From a virus, in IMG/VR virus record IMGVR_UViG_3300046804_004848, positions 64,001-128,000 of that record: 64,000 nucleotides of DNA, one strand, 5' to 3'. Position numbers and translations under genes: made by a program. The notes under the pieces were generated by a model. It searched no databases, was not told the origin of the DNA, and was given only the letters and a program-made list of their open reading frames with translations. Of the stretch, positions 2,482-63,087 are shown in pieces. Each line of letters begins with the position of its first letter. Position 1 is the first letter of the stretch.

Positions 2482-3536
2482 TTTTCTCCTATATATTCAT
2501 GTGACCAACACTCTCTATTAGCATGTGCAAGTAACGACTCAACAGAAAGCATTTGTTTATCATGCTGTGTACCACTTAACAAATAATCTTTGCGTTTCAT
2601 CTTGTTCTTACTTGTAGGTTTCCATAGAGGAGAGTTATCTCTATAACCACCCATTCTTGGATTAGCAGTTTTGCTAAAATAACGTTTACCTTGTTGTACG
2701 TGCATTTTAGCTATTGCATCACTAAATCTTACACCAATTCCTAATCCTTGAAAATCAGGTAAGATAACTGTGCGGTGTCCACGATAAGCATTTTTTAATG
2801 TTCCGCTAGGTTGTGGCAATACAGCAGCAAATCCTATGATAACATCATTCCATACTGCTGCCCAACATTTAGATGATTTATTCATGCTTCCACTTAAATA
2901 GTGATGTGGAGCGAAGGCTGTCCACAATTTTCTGTCAGCAGGTATGATTTCCAAAGTGATTGTTGGACGTTGCCGAAGTAACCCCCTTGTGAGTTCGCCC
3001 GTTGCGGTATCAAATACCCAATCAGGACGAAGCCACTCAACAATATCATAATGACATGTAGCAAACGTTACCTTTTGCAAACCCTCTGCTCTGATATAAC
3101 GATTAATCGCATTACTTAAACTTTTTGCTACATTGCGATCAACCACACTAGTAAATTCATCAATAACTGCACCACTTTGTAGCTGCCTAGCCATATCAGC
3201 ACGATGTTGTTCACCATTACTGCACACATGATATGGTCTACATAATGTGGGAATACTATTTAAACCAACCGCATGTAACTCATCTAAGCGATTAAAATGA
3301 CTACAGATTGCTTTATTTTTATCCCACTGTGGTATTTCAATATTTCCAATAGTTTTTAAGATACTAGATTTGCCACTGCCACTCGGACCGACAATCAACC
3401 CGATTTGATAATCAGTAGGTATGATAAATTGTGGAACTTCAAAGGTTGAAACACCTGTAAATTCATAATCAAAAGCAGTACTAACTGCTTTGACCATATC
3501 ATCAACAACTACTGTGGATGTAAGTATATTAGACAT
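2478..3536 (-). CDS. ABC-type ATPase fused to GNAT (Mom-like) acetyltransferase
   Basis: Walker A GPSGSGKS, signature-like CSNGE, Walker B IDEF, C-terminal acetyl-CoA motif [14 protein letters not shown]. Confidence 0.8.
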
Positions 3537-4125
3537 TTTCACGTTTCGCAATAATTTTATCAACTAACCCATAATTAATTGCTTCTTGTGCTGACATAAA
3601 CTTATCACGATCCATATCATGTTTAAAGTCATCATATGTTTTACCTGCGGTATTATGTTTTACATATAATTCAGTTAACATGTGTTTCATTTTAAGTATT
3701 TCTTTTAATGAAATTTCCATATCACTTACCATACCACGTGCTCCACCACTAGGTTGGTGAATCATATGACGTGCGTGTGGAAGTATATACCGTTTACCCG
3801 CTGCACCTGCTTGTGCTAAAAATGAACCCATACTGCATGCTTGACCCATAACGATAGTAGATACATCAGGTTTAATAAACTGCATGGTATCGTATATGCT
3901 CATACCATCGGTGACAGAACCGCCTGGGCTGTTGATGTAAAAACTAATATCCTTATCAGTATCTTCACTTTCTAAAAAAAGTAATTGTGCAACAATTAAA
4001 TTTGCACTAATTTCATTTACTTCACCATTTAAAATGACCACACGATCACGCAGTAATCTGCTGTATATGTCATAACTACGTTCACCACGACTAGTTTGTT
4101 CAACAACGATAGGTACTAAACTCAT
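3529..4125 (-). CDS. clpP: ATP-dependent Clp protease proteolytic subunit
   Basis: [25 protein letters not shown] (Ser), MIHQP (His), DRD. Confidence 0.97.
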
Positions 4126-5692: not shown

Positions 5693-6397
5693 ATGGATAT
5701 TCCGTTTTCATTAGATTTAATCAGTGATTTAAATTTATCAGACGATGAGCAATTTGATTGGACAGGTAACCAAACTTCATTATTTTGTATAGTAGCAGGT
5801 AATGTTGCACCAAGTTTAAGAAAATTACATCAGGTTTTAACACATTTAGGTACGCTATACAGGGGCGTTCTTTATATTGATGGGCAGCTTGAACATCAAA
5901 ATATACAACATTATGAGTCAAGAGTTGATCAAATTAAAACATTATGTGCCCCTATTCAAAATGTTATATACTTACATCAGCATGTAGTCATACTTAATGG
6001 TATAGCTTTTGTTGCAATTAATGGATGGTATCCTGTAAATTATCATAGTTACGATGCTACTCAACAAATGTATATTGATGCTCTTCGTATTAAAGATTTA
6101 GAATACCTTACTAGAACTATTAAAAACTTACAATCACATAATGATGCTAAACGTATATGCGTTATAACTAATAGTATACCAAGCGAACAATTAACATTTA
6201 AAGACCCTGATAATCATCTGCCTGACCCAATTGGTATCATTGTTTCATTAATGTCTGACATTAATCACAAAGTTGACCATTGGGTGTTTGGAAACTATAA
6301 TAAAATTATTGATGGTGTATATAATGGTAGACGGTATGTCAATAACCCCAAACTTCAAAATCAACCCTATTGGCCTAAACGAATTGTTTTAGGTTAA
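5693..6397 (+). CDS. calcineurin-like metallophosphoesterase homolog with degenerate active site
   Basis: motif order ISDLNL / VAGN / GQLEH / ITNS / WVFGNY / NNP matches SDLH / AGD / GNHE / THH / GHTH / NP. Confidence 0.65.
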   Translation: MDIPFSLDLISDLNLSDDEQFDWTGNQTSLFCIVAGNVAPSLRKLHQVLTHLGTLYRGVLYIDGQLEHQNIQHYESRVDQIKTLCAPIQNVIYLHQHVVILNGIAFVAINGWYPVNYHSYDATQQMYIDALRIKDLEYLTRTIKNLQSHNDAKRICVITNSIPSEQLTFKDPDNHLPDPIGIIVSLMSDINHKVDHWVFGNYNKIIDGVYNGRRYVNNPKLQNQPYWPKRIVLG

Positions 6398-6711
6398 TCA
6401 TCTACCTCTAGTTTAATTTGTAGTGGAAAACCATTAGAACGTGCTTCCATAGTCACTTCAATGCCTTTTTGTTCAGCAATTTCATACGGTAACACAGCAA
6501 CTACAGCACTGCCTGATTCATGTATATTATTAGTAATATCTATCGCAGTTTCTGCAGTGTATTGAAAATGGCTAATTAAAGTTGCAACAACAAATTCCAT
6601 GGTTGTAACACTATCATTGATGTAAATAATTTTATATAAAGGTGGTTGTGCCAACTTCATATTGGGTTTAATTCTTGTTTTTACATCACTTTTAGTATCA
6701 ATTTTAGCCAT
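6394..6711 (-). CDS. clpS: N-degron adaptor ClpS
   Basis: PPLYKIIYINDSVTTMEFVV...IHESGSAVV...YEIAEQK...GFPL. Confidence 0.92.
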   Translation of the reverse strand: MAKIDTKSDVKTRIKPNMKLAQPPLYKIIYINDSVTTMEFVVATLISHFQYTAETAIDITNNIHESGSAVVAVLPYEIAEQKGIEVTMEARSNGFPLQIKLEVDD

Positions 6712-6780: not shown

Positions 6781-7230
6781 TCACTTTGTATACGTGATTG
6801 CAATAGATTTTGGTTTCTTTTCTTCAGGAACTTTACGCTCTAGCGTAACACTTAAGATACCATTTTCTTGTATGGCACTAGTTACTTCAACATATTCAGC
6901 AATAGGCCATGAACGCTCAAATGAACGTGAGCCAATACCTTGATGAATATATTTGGTTTCTTGACCCTCTACTGTAGCAACTTGTCGCTTACCTTTAATA
7001 ATTAAGCTACGATTATGTACAGTAATATCAATTTCACCCTCTTTGAATCCTGCTACCGCAAGTTCAACAATATACTTGTCATCAGTTACTTCAATGACAT
7101 TGTATGGTGGGTAATTGGTAGTGATAGTTCCTTCATGTAAACGTGAAAGTTCATCAAACATACGGTCAAAACCAATACCAAATTTTGTGATTGTAGGAAT
7201 ATCAAACGAACGAAGTGTAAGATTTGTCAT
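6781..7230 (-). CDS. small heat shock protein (Hsp20, IbpA-like)
   Basis: IGFDRMF, NYPPYNV, ELAVAGF, NGILSV, VPEEKKP. Confidence 0.95.
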   Translation of the reverse strand: MTNLTLRSFDIPTITKFGIGFDRMFDELSRLHEGTITTNYPPYNVIEVTDDKYIVELAVAGFKEGEIDITVHNRSLIIKGKRQVATVEGQETKYIHQGIGSRSFERSWPIAEYVEVTSAIQENGILSVTLERKVPEEKKPKSIAITYTK

Positions 7231-7330: not shown

Positions 7331-8443
7331 TTATTTTTGGATAAACACATCATTGATTTGACGGTTTACTCTGATAAATGTAGTGCATTTAGGTAGTTGT
7401 TTAAGATTAGCTGCGCCAACATAGGTACACGTGCTGCGTAAGCCACCTAATATATCAAGTACAGTATTTTTAACTTGTCCTTTATAAGGTATTTCTACTG
7501 TACGTCCTTCGCTAGAACGATACTCTGCTACACCACCATGTGTTTTATTCATAGCAGTATCGCTACTCATGCCATAAAATTGTACGAATTTTTTAATGTC
7601 TAACATTGGTTCCATTTCATGGCTATGAGTATTATCATCATTCCAAACTGTAAGTGGATTAATTTCTGATGTATTATAATATTTTGTAATAACTTCTCCA
7701 CCACCTTCATCGTGTCCACCAAACATGCCACCTAACATTACAAAATCTGCTCCTGCACCAAAAGCCTTTGCAACATCCCCAGGACAAGTACACCCTCCAT
7801 CAGCAATAATATGTCCACCAAGACCATGAGCGGCATCTGCACATTCAATAATTGCACTAAGTTGAGGATAACCCACACCTGTTTGTACCCTAGTAGTGCA
7901 AACACTGCCTGGACCAATCCCCACTTTCACAATATCTGCTCCACGTAATATTAACTCCTGTGTCATATCTGCTGTAACTACATTACCTGCAATAATTGTT
8001 TTATCAGGCCAACGTGTTCTAACTTGTTCTACAAAGTCACCAAAATGTTCACTATACCCATTGGCTACATCAATACAAATAAATTGAGCACCAATACCTG
8101 TGATAATAGTGTTTAAGTTACGAAAATCTTCTTCACTAGTTCCTGTACTAACAGCATAATCATCTTTGTTTACATTAAATTCAGAAAAATTTTCAATGTC
8201 TTTGTTATAGGTTTTAATAAGGCAGGTAAATAACCTATGTTGACTTAATGTTTCTGCCATTTTTAAAGTGCCAACACCATCCATATTAGCAGCCATAATA
8301 GGAATACCTTCGTATTCATAACGGCTGTGTTTAAACCTATAAAATCTTAGCAAATCTACTTCTTTACGACTTGATAGTGTGCTTCGCTTTGGACGAATCA
8401 ATACATCCTTGAAATCAAGTAAGATTTCATTTTCAATTCTCAT
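7331..8443 (-). CDS. guaC: GMP reductase
   Basis: [43 protein letters not shown]. Confidence 0.96.
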
Positions 8444-9976: not shown

Positions 9977-10186
9977 CTAATAAAGTTTTGTAGGTAATTC
10001 CTGTGTACGTAAATATTTTTTCCAACGACTTACTGCTTTGCCTCTAGCAATTTTTCTAGCGATGCTAGGTTTAGTATACTCTTGACGATCACGTAATTCT
10101 TGCATAATACCACTTTCAAGAACTTTCTTCTTGAATTTTCTTATGCCACTTTCAAATGACTGTCCTTCACGTATTACAACTTTCAT
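9977..10186 (-). CDS. rpsU: 30S ribosomal protein bS21
   Basis: 69 aa, basic; IRKFKKKV..SGIMQELRDRQEYTKPS. Confidence 0.9.
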   Translation of the reverse strand: MKVVIREGQSFESGIRKFKKKVLESGIMQELRDRQEYTKPSIARKIARGKAVSRWKKYLRTQELPTKLY

Positions 10187-11436
10187 TTCTTTCCTTTTTT
10201 CAATAAGGTTCCAAGATAAGATTCTGCTTTAGGTTCCCAAAGTTTATTTAGCAAATTTGGGTCAACAACATGACTTTTATCTATGATAATTTTTTGACCT
10301 TTTAAAAACTTAGTATAAAACATAACCTTAAGTAGCACACGCTCAATTTCACTTTGTAAACCACGTGCACCTGTTTTTAATTCTAAACAATTTTCAGCAA
10401 TTTGTTCAATGGCATCTGCTGTAAAACTTAACTCTATTTCATCCAAACTTAACAAATACTGATATTGCTCAATAAAATTGTTTTTAACTTTAGTCAAAAT
10501 TTGAACCAATTGTTCTTTAGTCAGTTCGTTAATAGAAACACGACATGTAAACCTACCTGTAAACTCAGGAATCATACCAAACTTGGTTAAATCATCAGGT
10601 GAAACTTGCGATAATATATGATCCATAGAAGCACTTTGTCCAACCATCGCAGAAAAACCAATACTATTACCATGCAATCTACGTGAAATAATATCGCTTA
10701 ATCCAACAAAAGCACCACCTGATATAAACAATATGTTTTTAGTATTGACTTCTAACATATCATTACTTGGATGTTTTCTTTTACCAAGCTGTGGTACTCT
10801 ACAAACAGTACCCTCTACAATTTTTAATAGTGCTTGTTGTACACCTTCTCCACTAACATCACGTGTAATACTTGCGCTTTCGCTTTTTCGTGCAATTTTA
10901 TCAACTTCATCTACAAAAATAATACCACGCTCTGCTCGCTCAATATCACCATCAGCAGCAGCTACTAATCGTTGTATCATACTTTCAACATCATCACCAA
11001 CATAACCTGCTTCAGTTAATGATGTGGCATCAGCAATAACAAATGGCACATCTAAATATTTTGCTACTGTTTTAGCCATTAGTGTCTTGCCACCCCCGCT
11101 TGCTCCGAGAATAAGTACATTGGCTTTTTGTATTTCTAACTCTTTAGTTTCTGCTGTGATGCGTTTGTAATGATTAGATACTGCCACACTAAGTAACATT
11201 TTGGCATTATCTTGTCCAATGATATATTGGTCTAAAAATGTTTTAATGTCATCAGCATAAAAACTTATTTTACGTGGTGAATCATCCTCAAGTGGTTCAT
11301 CATCCTTGAGCAAATCATTACATAAATCAACACAATCACTACATATTGCAGTGCCTTCACCGACAATAAGTTTCTTGACAACATTTTTATGTTTGCCACA
11401 AAAACTACACTCTTGAAAATGATAAACTTCACCCAT
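10183..11436 (-). CDS. clpX: Clp protease ATP-binding subunit ClpX
   Basis: CSFCGK zinc finger, ADATSLTEAGYVGDDVE, DEVDKI, RDVSGEGVQQALLK, RKH loop, IGF loop. Confidence 0.96.
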   Translation of the reverse strand: MGEVYHFQECSFCGKHKNVVKKLIVGEGTAICSDCVDLCNDLLKDDEPLEDDSPRKISFYADDIKTFLDQYIIGQDNAKMLLSVAVSNHYKRITAETKELEIQKANVLILGASGGGKTLMAKTVAKYLDVPFVIADATSLTEAGYVGDDVESMIQRLVAAADGDIERAERGIIFVDEVDKIARKSESASITRDVSGEGVQQALLKIVEGTVCRVPQLGKRKHPSNDMLEVNTKNILFISGGAFVGLSDIISRRLHGNSIGFSAMVGQSASMDHILSQVSPDDLTKFGMIPEFTGRFTCRVSINELTKEQLVQILTKVKNNFIEQYQYLLSLDEIELSFTADAIEQIAENCLELKTGARGLQSEIERVLLKVMFYTKFLKGQKIIIDKSHVVDPNLLNKLWEPKAESYLGTLLKKGKK

Positions 11437-57342: not shown

Positions 57343-57858
57343 TTATCCCACTAATAATTTACATGCTGCGTTCATAACTGCTGCAATACGACCAATATCA
57401 CGTAACTGTTCAACAGTATAACCTTCTTTCTTAAGGGTATCATAATGTGCTTTTACACAAAAATGACACTTACCAACAATACTTGCACATAAACTATACG
57501 CTTCAAAATTAGCTTTAGTTGTGCCACCATGTGTGCCAATAACATTCATGCGTAACTGAGCAGGTAATCCCTTTAAATTTGCATCACCTGTCATTTCAAC
57601 ATACGGATACCATACATTATTTTGTGCCATTATACTTGCTGCTGCCATAGCTGCATCACGTTCTTTAGTATCTTGTATTACCCCATATAATCTTTCTACA
57701 ATACCACCATTACCTGTTGCTGCTGCTGCGGCTAGTGCGCAACATTCTGCTACAATTGGATCTAATGTTGAACGTAAAATTACTGCATCTAAATTTAACT
57801 TAATATCTTTAGCATAATCAGGTAAACCTTCTTTTAATACATTAACCCAAACCGACAT
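57343..57858 (-). CDS. ahpD: alkyl hydroperoxide reductase AhpD
   Basis: LPDYAKDIKLNL, MAQNNVWY, CHFCVKAH. Confidence 0.9.
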   Translation of the reverse strand: MSVWVNVLKEGLPDYAKDIKLNLDAVILRSTLDPIVAECCALAAAAATGNGGIVERLYGVIQDTKERDAAMAAASIMAQNNVWYPYVEMTGDANLKGLPAQLRMNVIGTHGGTTKANFEAYSLCASIVGKCHFCVKAHYDTLKKEGYTVEQLRDIGRIAAVMNAACKLLVG

Positions 57859-58528
57859 TACTTTCTCCTTTATGTTTCCTTATTCTAGTCCTGTAGTATT
57901 GTTTCATAGTTAAAACTACAGCTAGAACATACGGTAAACCATATTCTGACCAATCATGCAATGGATCAATATACTTGTCAACAAATGGTTCACCAATAAT
58001 CATCTTAAATGCAACTGCGTATAATACAAAAGCACCAATAAAAATAGTATCAGGATATTTTTCAAGCAATTTAGCAACCATTGTACTACCAAATAGTATA
58101 ATAGGTACACTTACCAATAAACCTATAATGATTAATGTCCAATTACCACCTGCTGCACCTGCAATGGCTAATGCATTATCTAAACCCATAACTGCATCTG
58201 CCATAACAATCGTACCCATAGCTCCCCAAAATGTCATAGAAGCCTTTATATCAGTATGGTCGCTGTTATTGGAGGTAAGTCTCCAAGCAATCCATATGAG
58301 TAAAAGTCCTCCTACAAACCGTAGCCCAGGTATCATCAATAAATATGTTAGCGCAGCAACACATAAAAAACGCACTGCAACAGCACCAAATGTTCCCCAA
58401 AACATTGCACGTTTACGCAAATGTTCAGGTAAATTCTTTGATGCCATTGCAATTACTAGTGCATTTTCACCACCTAAAACAATATCAATAAGAATAATTG
58501 CACCAAGTGCCCACAAAAACTCAATCAT
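57842..58528 (-). CDS. TerC/YjbE family membrane protein
   Basis: IDIVLGGENALVIA, ADAVMGLDNALAIAG. Confidence 0.9.
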   Translation of the reverse strand: MIEFLWALGAIILIDIVLGGENALVIAMASKNLPEHLRKRAMFWGTFGAVAVRFLCVAALTYLLMIPGLRFVGGLLLIWIAWRLTSNNSDHTDIKASMTFWGAMGTIVMADAVMGLDNALAIAGAAGGNWTLIIIGLLVSVPIILFGSTMVAKLLEKYPDTIFIGAFVLYAVAFKMIIGEPFVDKYIDPLHDWSEYGLPYVLAVVLTMKQYYRTRIRKHKGESNVGLG

Positions 58529-58652
58529 CTTTGTCTTTCTTATTGGATTTATCGTATAGGTAATTACCTAACATCACTGCTATTACTACACTAATAAAAA
58601 AGAAAAGAAATTTTACCTGATACACATCAAAAAGTGTTTCATATTCAAACAT
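58521..58652 (-). CDS. small membrane protein (43 aa, below the ORF-track cutoff)
   Basis: MFEYETLFDVYQVKFLFFFISVVIAVMLGNYLYDKSNKKDKDD, overlapping the ahpC stop and the terC start. Confidence 0.5.
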   Translation of the reverse strand: MFEYETLFDVYQVKFLFFFISVVIAVMLGNYLYDKSNKKDKDD

Positions 58653-59215
58653 TATAATGTCTCGCCACCAATAGAACGATTACATGCACAAAGTTCGCCT
58701 GTTTGTAATGCGTCAAGTACACGCAATGTTTCTTCAGGTGAGCGACCAACATTTAAATTATTTACTGTAACATGTTGAATAACATTGTCAGGATCAATTA
58801 TAAATGTAGCACGTAATGCAGCACCTGCAGGGTTATAAAAGACACCTAGTTGTTCAATAAGACTTAAATTTACATATTTCTCACCATCATAATGCTCACG
58901 TTGAGTATCAGCAAACTGAGTATGTGTAATTTTCTGTAAATCAGGATGTGCTTTTTGCCATGCTACTTTACAAAATTCGTTGTCTGTACTACCTGTGAGT
59001 AATACTGCATCACGATCTTCAAAGTCTTTGGCAAGTTTATCATAGGCTACAATTTCTGTAGGACATACAAAAGTAAAATCTTTTGGATAGTAAACGATAA
59101 TTTTCCATTTACCTTCAAAACTTTTTTCTGTGATTGTGAAGAATGCATCTTCAGGTTGATGGGGTTTAACCCCTGTAATTGCAAATGGTGTGAGTTTGTC
59201 ACCAACTGTTTTCAT
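58652..59215 (-). CDS. ahpC: peroxiredoxin AhpC
   Basis: YPKDFTFVCPTE, RATFIIDP, VGR, GELCACN. Confidence 0.95.
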   Translation of the reverse strand: MKTVGDKLTPFAITGVKPHQPEDAFFTITEKSFEGKWKIIVYYPKDFTFVCPTEIVAYDKLAKDFEDRDAVLLTGSTDNEFCKVAWQKAHPDLQKITHTQFADTQREHYDGEKYVNLSLIEQLGVFYNPAGAALRATFIIDPDNVIQHVTVNNLNVGRSPEETLRVLDALQTGELCACNRSIGGETL

Positions 59216-60456: not shown

Positions 60457-61374
60457 TTAGCCACCAAAAGGAACAAATTCTACACCTGTAGTTTGTAAAC
60501 CAACTAAATCAATTTGTGCTAATAACTCAGGGCGACTTGCGGCAACCATAAGTACATCAGCTTGTGAGTAACCATACTTTTCAATTGCATCAACTACTAC
60601 AGCGATTTCATCATACGTACCATCACGATTGAATACATTTTTCCATACATGTTTTGCAAAAGTTGCATTAGATGTGCTACCTGCGTCTGCTTTGTATTGG
60701 TCACTTGTTAAAATTTTGGCTGCAATTTCTTTCATGCTCCAACCAAGTGTTTCATCTAAATAGATTCCCGCACCAATAAGTTCAGGTGTTACATCATTTT
60801 TACCTAAAGCAGCAGCTAAAAGTGATATAATTTTACCCAAATCTGTATCAACTGTATCAAATGCAAGATGTTTGTCATCAAACTGTACTCGTTCATGATC
60901 ATCTAACACAAACGTTAAATTGCTTACAAGATGACTTGTAGCAATGATATCATGATTTGTATATGCTAGAGAATAATCAGAACTTTTGCCATTGATTTTA
61001 TAACTATCAATACCTGTAGAACCTTCTACATTAATATTAACATCAATTACACCATCACCAACACGACCATTACCTACCGTACCAAATGTAGCAACTTTAC
61101 CACCAATTCCTACTGTACCAACAGTAACAATAAGATTATTAGTTGGTGCAACTCCACCAAGCGAAGTCCCAGGAATCGTTATCGTATCCCCTGCTTGATA
61201 CCCTGCTCCACTACTTGCAACTGCTGCATCTAATGTAACAGTGTATTTTCCATTGGTTTTGACTACATCAAACTTTGCTCCAAGATCGGTTCCCCCTGTT
61301 AATCCTGTAACATTATCATAGGTAGCATTAATTGGATTATCTGTAATTGTAATTGTTGTTGTGCCTTTAGCCAT
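60457..61374 (-). CDS. surface-layer-like protein with DUF4214-like C-terminus
   Basis: G/T/V-rich beta N-terminus; ERVQFDDKHLAFD; SNATF..HVWKNVFNR. Confidence 0.6.
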   Translation of the reverse strand: MAKGTTTITITDNPINATYDNVTGLTGGTDLGAKFDVVKTNGKYTVTLDAAVASSGAGYQAGDTITIPGTSLGGVAPTNNLIVTVGTVGIGGKVATFGTVGNGRVGDGVIDVNINVEGSTGIDSYKINGKSSDYSLAYTNHDIIATSHLVSNLTFVLDDHERVQFDDKHLAFDTVDTDLGKIISLLAAALGKNDVTPELIGAGIYLDETLGWSMKEIAAKILTSDQYKADAGSTSNATFAKHVWKNVFNRDGTYDEIAVVVDAIEKYGYSQADVLMVAASRPELLAQIDLVGLQTTGVEFVPFGG

Positions 61375-61427
61375 GCGTGTGTCCTTTAAAGTTAAACAAG
61401 TATTTAGCCTTAATTAAGTTAATATGC

Positions 61428-61454
61428 AAAAAATAGGGGCACGAATGCCCCTAT
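61428..61454 (-). terminator. Rho-independent terminator after the tmRNA coding piece
   Basis: ATAGGGGCATTCGTGCCCCTAT followed by a T run. Confidence 0.85.
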
Positions 61455-61617
61455 TGGTGGGTTTGGTTACAAGGTCTTTCCTACCTCGCTATTAGGCGTT
61501 TGCTGCTAATAGATATGTATCGTCGTTTGCAGATACTTATTTTGCTAGAATTACGTTCTTCGCCTATCGTGTTGTCCATATCCGTACTTGTTACCCCGTC
61601 GAAACCAAGTCTAGCCC
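61455..61617 (-). ncRNA. ssrA: permuted tmRNA, coding piece (5' acceptor strand plus tag ANDDTYLLAANA)
   Basis: GGGCTAGACTTGGTTTCGACGGGG; resume codon GCA at 61530; tag frame ends TAA TAG; 3' end approximate. Confidence 0.9.
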
Positions 61618-61626
61618 ATCATAAGT

Positions 61627-61878
61627 TTACTTTATGTATCTGTTAATAAGTTTAATACCTGCATACGTTCCTAACACAGTAAACATCATTTTGAATACTG
61701 TCATCCAATCTGTAGCATTACTTAGCGTTATCTTAAGAGGACCTGCTTCTATAGAATCCGTTGTTTTAGGTAAAATAAACCATTGTGCATAATAAACAAC
61801 AAGATCCCAGGAATACTGTAACACAAAATATGCAGCTATAGATATTAAAATGCCTGTAAATAACCCTTTACGATACAT
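61627..61878 (-). CDS. two-TM membrane protein inside the tmRNA intervening segment
   Basis: 83 aa; AAGGTG RBS right after the tmRNA CCA; two hydrophobic helices. Confidence 0.7.
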   Translation of the reverse strand: MYRKGLFTGILISIAAYFVLQYSWDLVVYYAQWFILPKTTDSIEAGPLKITLSNATDWMTVFKMMFTVLGTYAGIKLINRYIK

Positions 61879-61890
61879 TAAATCACCTTA

Positions 61891-61954
61891 TGGTGGACTA
61901 GGGGGGATTTGAACCCCCGTCCGCAGCACTTTTCCATCAACTTCATACAACAAT
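61891..61954 (-). ncRNA. ssrA: permuted tmRNA, acceptor piece (T arm plus CCA)
   Basis: GGACGGGGGTTCAAATCCCCCCTAGTCCACCA; CTAGTCC pairs with GGGCTAG giving G3.U70; TAAATA at 61960-61965; 5' end inferred. Confidence 0.9.
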
Positions 61955-61962
61955 ACTACTAT

Positions 61963-63087
61963 TTATTTACCGCTTGGAATCTTACCTTCTACACCTTCAA
62001 TGTAAAAATTAATCCTACCTTTCCATGCATCATCACCAACCACATCTTTTTCTAATACAATTTTACCTGTATTGTCTTTAAGTGGTCCTTTAAATACTTC
62101 AAATGTACCTGCTTTTAATCCTGCCTTAACTTCATCAACCTTTTTCTTGGCAGTATCGCTAACAACATCATTGATTTTAACTAAATCATTAGCACCTTCT
62201 TTGGTTCCCCATTTTGTATCAGAGGTTTTCCATGTACCATTTAGTACATCATTAACAGCTTTTTCGTAGTATGGTCCCCAATTTACAATGGCTGATCCAA
62301 GATGTGCCTTAGGAGCAAATGCGCTCATGTCACTATCCCAACCAAAAGCAAACTTACCATTTTTCTCAGCAGTAAGCAATACCGCAGTTGAATCTGTATT
62401 TTGTAACAATACATCTGCTTTTTGATTGATCAAAGCTTGTGCTGCTTCACCTTCTTTAGGTGGATCAAACCATGTATTCACCCAAACAACCTTAGTAGTA
62501 ACCTTAGGATTGACACTTCTTGCACCCAATGTAAAAGCATTAATATTACGTAATACTTCAGGAATAGGGAAACTTGCTACAAATCCTAGTGTATTAGTTT
62601 TTGTCATACTACCTGCAACAATACCTGCCATGTAAGCATCTTCATAAAATTTTGCTTCATATACACGTAGATTTTCTGCTGTCTTATAACCTGTAGCATG
62701 TTCAAACTTAACATCAGGATGATCTTTAGCTACTTTTTCCATAGCATCACCAAAACCAAATGATGTAGCAAAAATAAGTTTATTACCTTGGCTAACTAAA
62801 TCACGAATAACACGTTCAGCATCAGCACCTTCAGGTACTTTCTCCACAAAACTAGTTTTGATCTTATCACCGAATTTTTCTTCAATGTGCTTACGACCAT
62901 TATCATGAGCAAATGTCCACCCCGCATCGCCAACAGGTCCGACATAGATAAATCCTACCTTAAGAGGTTCTGTTGCTTTTGGTGCTTCAGCAGGTTTTGC
63001 TTCTTCTTTTTTTCCACAACTTGCTAGTGTAAAAGCAGTAATTGCAGCTAATGCAGTATGCATTAGTTTACGTTTAGTAAAAGTCAT
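61963..63087 (-). CDS. BMP-family ABC transporter substrate-binding lipoprotein
   Basis: lipobox LASC, GFIYVGPVGDAGWT.AH..GR, ATSFG, INAFTLGA, WFDP. Confidence 0.92.
   Translation of the reverse strand: MTFTKRKLMHTALAAITAFTLASCGKKEEAKPAEAPKATEPLKVGFIYVGPVGDAGWTFAHDNGRKHIEEKFGDKIKTSFVEKVPEGADAERVIRDLVSQGNKLIFATSFGFGDAMEKVAKDHPDVKFEHATGYKTAENLRVYEAKFYEDAYMAGIVAGSMTKTNTLGFVASFPIPEVLRNINAFTLGARSVNPKVTTKVVWVNTWFDPPKEGEAAQALINQKADVLLQNTDSTAVLLTAEKNGKFAFGWDSDMSAFAPKAHLGSAIVNWGPYYEKAVNDVLNGTWKTSDTKWGTKEGANDLVKINDVVSDTAKKKVDEVKAGLKAGTFEVFKGPLKDNTGKIVLEKDVVGDDAWKGRINFYIEGVEGKIPSGK

Follow-up and report, generated by a model that had tools for sequence, protein, structure and literature searches.

The window analysed here comprises 64,000 nucleotides (nt), corresponding to positions 64001-128000 of an IMG/VR virus record of 138 kb (IMGVR_UViG_3300046804_004848; in the following G000) with a CheckV completeness of 39%. 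The record belongs to a large uncultured freshwater phage and encodes a T4-type terminase. On its minus strand, the window contains the gene of a circularly permuted two-piece transfer-messenger RNA (tmRNA), in which the acceptor piece precedes the coding piece. The two pieces are separated by a spacer of 273 nt, and this spacer holds a single open reading frame (ORF) of 83 amino acids (aa), designated ORF83. The locus is named WIN below; its elements are compiled in Table 1.

Anatomy of the tmRNA locus

The Rfam family of permuted tmRNAs, RF04321 (tmRNA_permuted), matches the minus strand from 61952 to 61492 with 95.9 bits (cut-off 47; E = 2.4e-17). The match covers model positions 1-213 of 213, and RF04321 is the sole Rfam family above cut-off anywhere in the window. 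The tRNA-like domain consists of a T arm, a 7-bp acceptor stem with the G3.U70 pair, a discriminator A and an encoded CCA, and its 3' strand precedes its 5' strand. The tag frame, ANDDTYLLAANA, begins with an alanine resume codon and is terminated by a stop codon. A fold of the putative precursor of 531 nt by minimum free energy (MFE) contains the T arm, an acceptor stem of 8 pairs, a closing stem of 6 pairs formed by the two ends of the spacer, and a long-range helix between the pieces. None of 100 shuffled sequences is as stable as this fold (z = -2.53). The spacer folded alone has a z of -0.87, and its structure is thus not unusual. The model RF01850 (beta_tmRNA) matches the coding piece alone (61659-61430; 48.9 bits, which is under its cut-off of 84); when 12 related phage loci whose spacers are shorter were compared with this model, five of them passed the cut-off with 96-155 bits.

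For comparison, at least 151 distinct permuted tmRNA loci were parsed, which originate from two degenerate pattern scans of IMG/VR and from the loci that contain ORF83 homologues. All counts given below for these related loci apply among the matches listed.

A preliminary description of the window, made without database searches, had proposed a circularly permuted phage tmRNA of two pieces with a gene for a membrane protein between them. The Rfam match and the terminase gene of the record corroborate this proposal, and a permuted-tmRNA covariance model had been named there as a check. A renewed reading of the minus strand gave the same positions for the T arm, the CCA ending at 61891, the 273-nt spacer, G1 at 61617 and the tag frame. 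The acceptor stem GGGCUAG/CUAGUCC with its G3.U70 pair and the pairing of the spacer ends (CAUAAG with CUUAUG) were likewise read from the sequence and agree with the MFE fold, and the hairpin behind the coding piece is terminator-like. The proposed late promoter stood in part: the TAAATA motif lies at 61960-61965 and is accompanied by a second, overlapping copy, and its role as a promoter is putative, being derived from positional recurrence. Both copies reach into the end of the upstream gene for a Bmp-family lipoprotein, overlapping its stop codon, and are located 8-17 nt 5' of the position where the Rfam match begins; from the copy at 61965-61960, the distance to the downstream sequence GGAC is 43 nt. 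TAAATA is found at -44 or -43 in 30 of 146 related loci and at a distance of at most 110 nt in 74 of them, compared to 20.5 in shuffles. In other related loci, TTGACA-type sites replace TAAATA.

The hairpin at 61455-61432 is the only terminator-like site within 61200-62300. In the same scan, such sites were detected neither inside the spacer nor between the tmRNA and its upstream neighbour. As the only site follows directly after the coding piece, these results argue for a single transcription unit. A tmRNA interrupted by a group I intron was considered as well and rejected: the T loop UUCAAAU is unbroken, and no intron family was found in 61350-62050 at the gathering threshold or at E <= 1.

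Table 1. Elements of the WIN locus and neighbouring genes of the window (positions in the window)
Feature	Position	Strand	Basis or detail
Two overlapping TAAATA motifs, T4-late-promoter-like (putative)	61965-61960 and 61969-61964	(-)	sequence read
Acceptor piece (5' strand of long-range helix, T arm, acceptor 3' strand, A73, CCA)	61891..61952	(-)	RF04321 positions 1-63; MFE fold
T arm	61918-61902	(-)	GGGGG 61918-61914, loop UUCAAAU 61913-61907, CCCCC 61906-61902
Acceptor 3' strand CUAGUCC; discriminator A73; encoded CCA	61901-61895; 61894; 61893-61891	(-)	
Spacer (intervening segment), 273 nt	61618..61890	(-)	insert between acceptor strands in Rfam alignment; missing from mature tmRNA by homology
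Closing stem	CAUAAG 61892-61887 with CUUAUG 61625-61620 (leader strand)	(-)	sequence and MFE fold
Shine-Dalgarno-like AAGGUGA	61882..61888	(-)	begins 3 nt past CCA; first three bases within closing stem
ORF83, 83 aa, predicted two-helix membrane protein	61627..61878	(-)	ORF call, homologues, dN/dS, AlphaFold
Coding piece, from G1 61617	61456..61617 (putative 3' end)	(-)	RF04321 positions 87-213
Acceptor 5' strand GGGCUAG	61617-61611	(-)	7 pairs with CUAGUCC, including G3.U70
Tag frame ANDDTYLLAANA	GCA 61530 to GCC ending 61495; stop UAA 61494-61492	(-)	sequence, Rfam alignment
Intrinsic-terminator-like hairpin (61455-61432) with T run	61425..61455	(-)	terminator scan
Bmp-family substrate-binding lipoprotein	61963-63087	(-)	
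AhpC peroxiredoxin	58652-59215	(-)	
TerC membrane protein	57842-58528	(-)	
ClpX	10183-11436	(-)	zinc finger and AAA_2
IMPDH/GMP-reductase-type enzyme	7331-8443	(-)	
Hsp20	6781-7230	(-)	
ClpS	6394-6711	(-)	
ClpP	3529-4125	(-)	262.6 bits

Selection on the tmRNA

A second locus with the same layout, L124, is located in a 338-kb phage contig (G001) that is 97% complete. Here, RF04321 scores 104.9 bits across the homologue of ORF83, which is 75% identical to ORF83 itself; the spacer is again 273 nt long and the junctions are nearly alike. A comparison of homologous loci by spacer length and ORF content had been recommended in the preliminary description. Between WIN and L124, pair 5:68 of the acceptor stem changes from U-A to C-G and pair 6:67 from A-U to U-A. 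Furthermore, one pair of the T stem changes from G-C to C-G, and one pair of the long-range helix from U-A to C-G. The synonymous sites of ORF83 are near saturation in the same comparison (proportion of synonymous differences, pS, 0.57).

A further related locus, L155, has a spacer of 65 nt that contains no ORF, and its tag ANDDTYLLAANA is that of WIN; L155 is the natural empty-slot comparison for WIN. The two-sided pair changes in three helices, together with a tag that is identical to the one of the ORF-less L155, argue against a dead tmRNA gene. Judged by these comparisons, the tmRNA is still selected while it holds ORF83. The flanks of L124 and of the locus in G000 have nothing in common beyond the tmRNA-ORF unit and one distant gene. 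The neighbourhood of this unit is therefore not conserved.

Conservation and predicted structure of ORF83

ORF83 occupies the spacer almost completely: its start codon lies 12 nt past the CCA, its stop codon ends 9 nt short of G1, and it is the only ORF in the spacer. The Shine-Dalgarno-like sequence of WIN is replaced by AAGGAGA in L124. A search of 5.8 billion proteins yielded 29 clusters of homologues with identities of 55-88%, all of which are 83-89 aa long. In the alignment of 30 sequences, 23 columns are invariant, and most of these belong to the loop DSIEAGPxKxTLSNxTxW and to the second hydrophobic helix. The family can thus be described by a length of about 83 aa, two hydrophobic helices and the invariant loop D-S-I-E-x-G-P-x-K-x-T-L-S-N-x-T-x-W, and all three features are found in the ORF of WIN. 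An exhaustive HMMER search gave 31 representatives at E <= 0.001, two of which were spurious. More distant homologues of 85-249 aa share the C-terminal module, which is preceded by a helix at the N-terminus and by a linker of proline-rich or coiled-coil type. The two spurious candidates, P0034 and P0055, were rejected because they turned out to be repeat proteins on inspection.

The ratio of nonsynonymous to synonymous substitution rates (dN/dS) is 0.16 between WIN and L124 and 0.18-0.31 between WIN and eight further copies; one more pair is saturated. These values, in combination with the homologues, indicate that ORF83 is a real protein-coding gene under purifying selection. An AlphaFold model calculated with the alignment places helices at residues 2-35 and 58-82 and a small hairpin between them, at 43-50; the mean predicted local distance difference test (pLDDT) value is 70. 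The product is predicted to be a membrane protein of two long helices that the conserved loop connects, in line with the preliminary description, which had characterized the ORF as a spacer-filling, two-helix membrane protein with a ribosome-binding site right after the CCA.

Known families gave no match that names a function of the protein. Neither Pfam nor PHROGs contains a matching family (0 at E <= 0.1), none of ten distant homologues has a Pfam match over cut-off, the top score among Atlas features is 0.85 and under the level that counts, and a Foldseek comparison with BFVD gave 33 matches of which none reached E <= 0.001. A search of 185,579 bacterial and archaeal species genomes gave no relative, and BLAST searches with the locus, ORF83 and the coding piece gave no match in 50,697 GenBank phage records. 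In viral contigs, a search with the single sequence of ORF83 found no relative, and four were found when the alignment was used. Because of its small size and its two hydrophobic helices, the protein was compared with phage holins. This gave no support for a holin, since no holin family is matched, the C-terminus is only ..NRYIK, and the neighbours are tmRNA halves or nrdA and nrdB.

The spacer as a slot for small genes

In order to assess spacers in general, a filling ORF was defined by a start at most 25 nt from the CCA and a stop at most 15 nt from G1, and 200 shuffles were used for comparison. The spacers of the 151 loci are 4-382 nt long, mostly 55-100 nt. In the class of 130-400 nt, 13 of 20 spacers contain a filling ORF, compared to a shuffle mean of 0.17 (standard deviation 0.42, maximum 2). 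For spacers of 85-129 nt the corresponding number is 17 of 45, with a shuffle mean of 4.1 (standard deviation 2.0, maximum 11). Those filling ORFs that have at least 20 aa (n = 34) belong to 23 sequence families, and in 11 of these families a strongly hydrophobic window of 15 residues occurs. For example, a peptide of 24 aa is encoded in six loci with four different acceptor stems, and a cysteine-rich protein of 86-87 aa in two loci; single ORFs have 35-123 aa. The cut-off of RF04321 is passed by 11 of the 12 ORF-bearing loci that were checked.

The closing stem is a property of the whole clade. At least seven of ten pairs between the trailer (ACCA plus six nt) and the last ten nt of the spacer are formed in 131 of 138 loci, compared to 256 of 2760 shuffled leaders, and the stem is present irrespective of a spacer ORF. 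In ORF-bearing loci the trailer strand contains ..AAGGAG.., so that one strand of the closing stem would double as ribosome-binding site. Moreover, the conserved leader ..TGAT in front of G1 provides the stop codon for many filling ORFs. The acceptor-piece motif of the clade was found in more than 120 viral contigs among the matches listed, whereas the 185,579 species genomes of bacteria and archaea gave 0 contigs with this motif. Exact stretches of 26 nt and 22 nt from the two tmRNA halves of WIN gave no match in viral contigs.

On the basis of these comparisons, the spacer is a general slot for unrelated small genes in related phage tmRNAs. This agrees well with one of two suggestions in the preliminary description, namely that the spacer serves as a neutral landing site for cargo genes: ORF83 is found in other slots as well (see below), and the same position is taken by the 23 unrelated ORF families.

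Two further arrangements were observed among these loci. In L049, L153 and L163, which have spacers of 98 nt, an ORF of 32-41 aa (MFENWHWVY...) led by a ribosome-binding site extends from 11 nt past the CCA into the mature coding piece. Because this ORF crosses G1, cleavage by RNase P would yield a message without stop codon. In L157, the tmRNA has a spacer of 284 nt with a cysteine-rich ORF of 87 aa and is accompanied by 29 tRNA genes over the Rfam cut-off in 14 kb.

Other genomic positions of ORF83

Homologues of ORF83 could be located in 12 distinct readable loci; three metagenome loci were duplicates of viral ones. Two of the homologues are in tmRNA spacers (WIN and L124), six between nrdA and nrdB, one upstream of nrdB behind another gene, one directly upstream of a tmRNA (L132) and two elsewhere. 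In the six nrdA-nrdB loci (L125, L126, L127, L128, L131 and L134), ATGA overlaps exist at the nrdA stop and the nrdB start, which suggests translational coupling within the reductase operon. The nrd genes were identified by Pfam for the G001 orthologues and, for L126, by 83% identity of its nrdB to that of G001; the remaining loci were assigned by eye.

L132 represents a third arrangement of the ORF83-tmRNA pair. In the stretch 2446-2990 of L132, the first half of the ORF83 copy is interrupted by a stop codon and a frameshift, and this copy is directly followed by a permuted tmRNA of the beta type, which scores 147 bits and has a spacer of 5 nt. This phage is a relative of the WIN phage, as its AhpC, AhpD-like and GuaC-like genes are about 72-75% identical to those of G000. 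The contigs G001 and G003, each with a completeness of at least 95%, contain one copy of ORF83 apiece, which is in the spacer in G001 and in the nrd slot in G003; a permuted tmRNA over cut-off was not found in G003. The nrdA-nrdB junction of G001 (L142, 2600-3199, minus strand) is filled by an ORF of 199 aa that has no Pfam family and is unrelated to ORF83. It follows that the nrdA-nrdB junction is likewise a variable slot.

Since homologues of ORF83 occupy other slots and the same spacer position carries many unrelated ORFs, ORF83 is, to judge from this distribution, cargo and no component of the tmRNA.

Proposed maturation and alternative explanations

We estimate with a probability of roughly 0.7 that WIN is a functional permuted two-piece tmRNA gene of the betaproteobacterial type, whose stem-closed loop, lost in maturation, provides a small unrelated gene with a slot for its expression. 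The tmRNA anatomy, the selection on both RNA and protein, and the recurrence of the slot are given by the data; from these, a single precursor, the cleavage sites, translation and the membrane location are inferred. One transcript would start at the TAAATA-type promoter and/or by read-through from the upstream gene, and would end at the hairpin 61455-61432. As expected from homologous permuted tmRNAs, RNase P would cut 5' of G1 (61617), and tRNA 3'-end trimming would proceed to the CCA (61891). The resulting acceptor piece of about 62 nt and the coding piece would remain connected through the acceptor stem and the long-range helix. The intervening 273 nt would comprise a ribosome-binding site, the gene of 83 codons and its stop 9 nt before G1, and the ORF83 protein could be translated on the precursor and/or from the excised segment. 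The other suggestion of the preliminary description, namely that tmRNA maturation releases an mRNA, is plausible.

A more far-reaching model is possible, although we rate its chances as somewhat below even. Here, the transcript would be a bifunctional precursor, from which processing frees a minimal mRNA of 273 nt, in which 12 nt precede and 9 nt follow the gene and the two ends pair. The ribosome-binding site has bases in common with the closing stem, and start and stop codon are 12 and 9 nt away from the mature ends, so that ribosomes located on these codons would hide the CCA end and G1. Translation by a ribosome and folding of the acceptor stem would thus presumably exclude each other, and each transcript could undergo either translation or maturation. 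The phage lineage would then use a strongly transcribed spacer as a plug-in slot, with ribosome-binding site and stop codon built into the stem, for at least 23 families of small genes, half of which code for membrane peptides.

Several observations weigh against the functional tmRNA with an expression slot. ARAGORN, which had been recommended as a check, made no call in the window (0 tRNA, 0 tmRNA), and loci of this type consequently escape routine annotation. The tag ANDDTYLLAANA ends with ANA, whereas the canonical ending is LAA. Such ..ANA endings are seen in six of the 151 loci (WIN, L155, L147, L086, L099 and L053) and most others have ..LAA, in a tally by crude extraction from which the endings alone were used because start positions are wrong in some loci. 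A gene for SmpB is missing from the 138-kb record, which is 39% complete, and the tmRNA would accordingly depend on SmpB of the host. A sigma-70-like site, TTAACA-17-TATGAT, is located at 61646-61618 inside the end of ORF83. As for the slot, filling ORFs are not above chance in spacers below 85 nt (12 of 59 for 60-84 nt, shuffle mean 9.0; 12 of 27 below 60 nt, shuffle mean 7.0), seven of the 20 long spacers contain none, and L255, the ORF-bearing locus with the longest spacer, is undetected by Rfam. A tree of 36 members of the ORF83 family is too poorly resolved to tell whether the location in the spacer has a single origin. As weak evidence in favour of this explanation, both of two true metatranscriptomic RNA runs contain a contig of 151 nt inside ORF83 (61709-61859 with one differing letter and 61700-61850 with four), and these are assembled contigs without strand, end or level, for which DNA carry-over is possible; uncovered parts of the locus carry no meaning in these runs.

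Contigs from other runs touch the processing sites. In X16 and X17, which are probably DNA, three contigs link the two tmRNA pieces and skip 279-307 nt; the letters between the two sides are not given, the sides are short, and the likeness setting was 85. These contigs are probably related tmRNA genes with other spacers and carry no weight for the WIN locus. Contigs of X18 that end at 61890/61891 have three differing letters in 33-34 and unlike sequence beyond, and were assigned to other tRNA-like genes.

The most durable alternative, which we nevertheless consider improbable, is that acceptor piece, ORF83 and coding piece are three independent units with a promoter each, and that neither a precursor nor an excision exists. 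The sigma-70-like site just upstream of G1 is compatible with this explanation, as is the clade-conserved leader ..TGAT, which looks like a -10 element. This hexamer abuts G1, however, and a start 5-9 nt downstream would miss part of the acceptor strand. Moreover, only two promoter-like sites were counted in the region of the locus compared to 4.3 in shuffles, the parts are not separated by a terminator-like site, and the pairing of leader and trailer found in 131 of 138 loci is meaningful on a joint precursor only.

Even less credit can be given to the assumption that insertion of the ORF has disabled the tmRNA, so that only the gene of the membrane protein works and the flanking halves are decaying remnants. 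It would account for the silence of ARAGORN, the ANA ending and the lack of an SmpB gene in the record, and the spacer of WIN belongs to the second-longest class among the 151 loci. It is at odds with full-length Rfam matches well over cut-off in both WIN and L124, and with two-sided pair changes in three helices despite the near-saturated synonymous sites of the ORF. In addition, the tag frame is unbroken and shared with L155, and other ORF-bearing loci have retained canonical ...ALAA tags.

That ORF83 is a chance open frame, or is conserved for RNA structure rather than as a protein, would be in keeping with the lack of a Pfam, PHROG, structural or Atlas match that names the protein, but is effectively refuted by comparison of the sequences, as homologues of equal length and motif exist outside tmRNAs between nrdA and nrdB, the dN/dS values are 0.16-0.31, and the spacer RNA is not unusually structured.

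Gene context and implications

The tmRNA locus is accompanied in the window by genes for ClpX, ClpP, ClpS and Hsp20 (Table 1). In combination with the tmRNA, these proteins may constitute a tagging-and-degradation pathway of the phage's own during infection. The tag encoded beside this Clp set ends with AANA and not with LAA. Host-like metabolic genes are present as well: they code for the Bmp-family substrate-binding lipoprotein, an AhpC peroxiredoxin, a TerC membrane protein and an enzyme of the inosine monophosphate dehydrogenase (IMPDH)/GMP-reductase type. Outside the window, the model of standard tmRNAs gives two weak matches below cut-off (G000:C1:3409-3498 and 3742-3834; 28 and 24 bits), which are probably tRNA genes.

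The spacers of permuted tmRNAs have so far been treated as discarded RNA. Here, the message in the spacer codes for a protein and is under selection, and the same arrangement is found with many different genes across a lineage of phage tmRNAs; a gene for a stable RNA would thereby double as an operon. The locus offers a concrete system for the competition between translation and RNA maturation on one molecule. It also suggests a reservoir of small phage proteins, including many membrane peptides, which both gene callers and ARAGORN overlook.

Comparison with known systems

Two-piece tmRNAs of phages have been published for the OM43 phage Melnitz and for pelagimyophages (PMC9004378). According to the accessible part of that article, 53 of 133 distinct phage tmRNAs were classified as two-piece by ARAGORN, the gene is accompanied by a glutamine riboswitch, and its affinity is alphaproteobacterial. 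Like WIN, these tmRNAs come from a permuted ssrA gene of aquatic phages that carry T4-type genes; in contrast to WIN, a protein gene in the spacer is not described in this part of the article.

The accessible part of a second article (PMC11915505) describes two permuted tmRNAs with inserts, namely a tRNA-Ala gene in the spacer of one and a repetitive element in that of the other. Long bacterial spacers are thus on record there, and the statement of the preliminary description that spacers elsewhere are short and non-coding needs a small correction. As in WIN, foreign sequences large enough to be functional are accommodated in these spacers; as far as this part of the article goes, the inserts are an RNA gene or a repeat in nominally cellular genomes and not translated genes that recur in phages. 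The same source describes tmRNA genes that are broken by group I introns in the T loop, some of them with genes for LAGLIDADG homing endonucleases. These share with WIN an ORF in a stretch that is missing from the mature tmRNA. According to this account, their insert lies in the T loop, is self-splicing and has an ORF for a homing nuclease, whereas the insert of WIN lies between CCA and G1, would leave by tRNA end-processing and encodes a small membrane protein. In the literature covered, which did not include supplementary tables such as those of PMC11915505, no description of protein genes in permuted tmRNA spacers was found.

Compared to the permuted tmRNAs of RF04321 and RF01850, WIN has the same order of pieces, T arm, 7-bp acceptor stem with G3.U70, encoded CCA, tag frame and a spacer-closing stem that extends the acceptor stem; in contrast to them, WIN has a spacer of 273 nt that holds a complete, selected gene with a ribosome-binding site of its own. 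Specific to WIN are the two-helix protein of 83 aa, its alternation between tmRNA spacer and nrdA-nrdB junction, the arrangement seen in L132, and the Clp and Hsp20 genes alongside. In bacteria, co-transcripts of tRNAs and mRNAs such as that of the E. coli tufB operon are processed by RNase P and at the 3' side into stable RNAs, and they provide a translated message as well. The mRNA of the tufB operon is located outside the stable RNAs, whereas that of WIN lies inside one RNA gene, whose halves pair across it.

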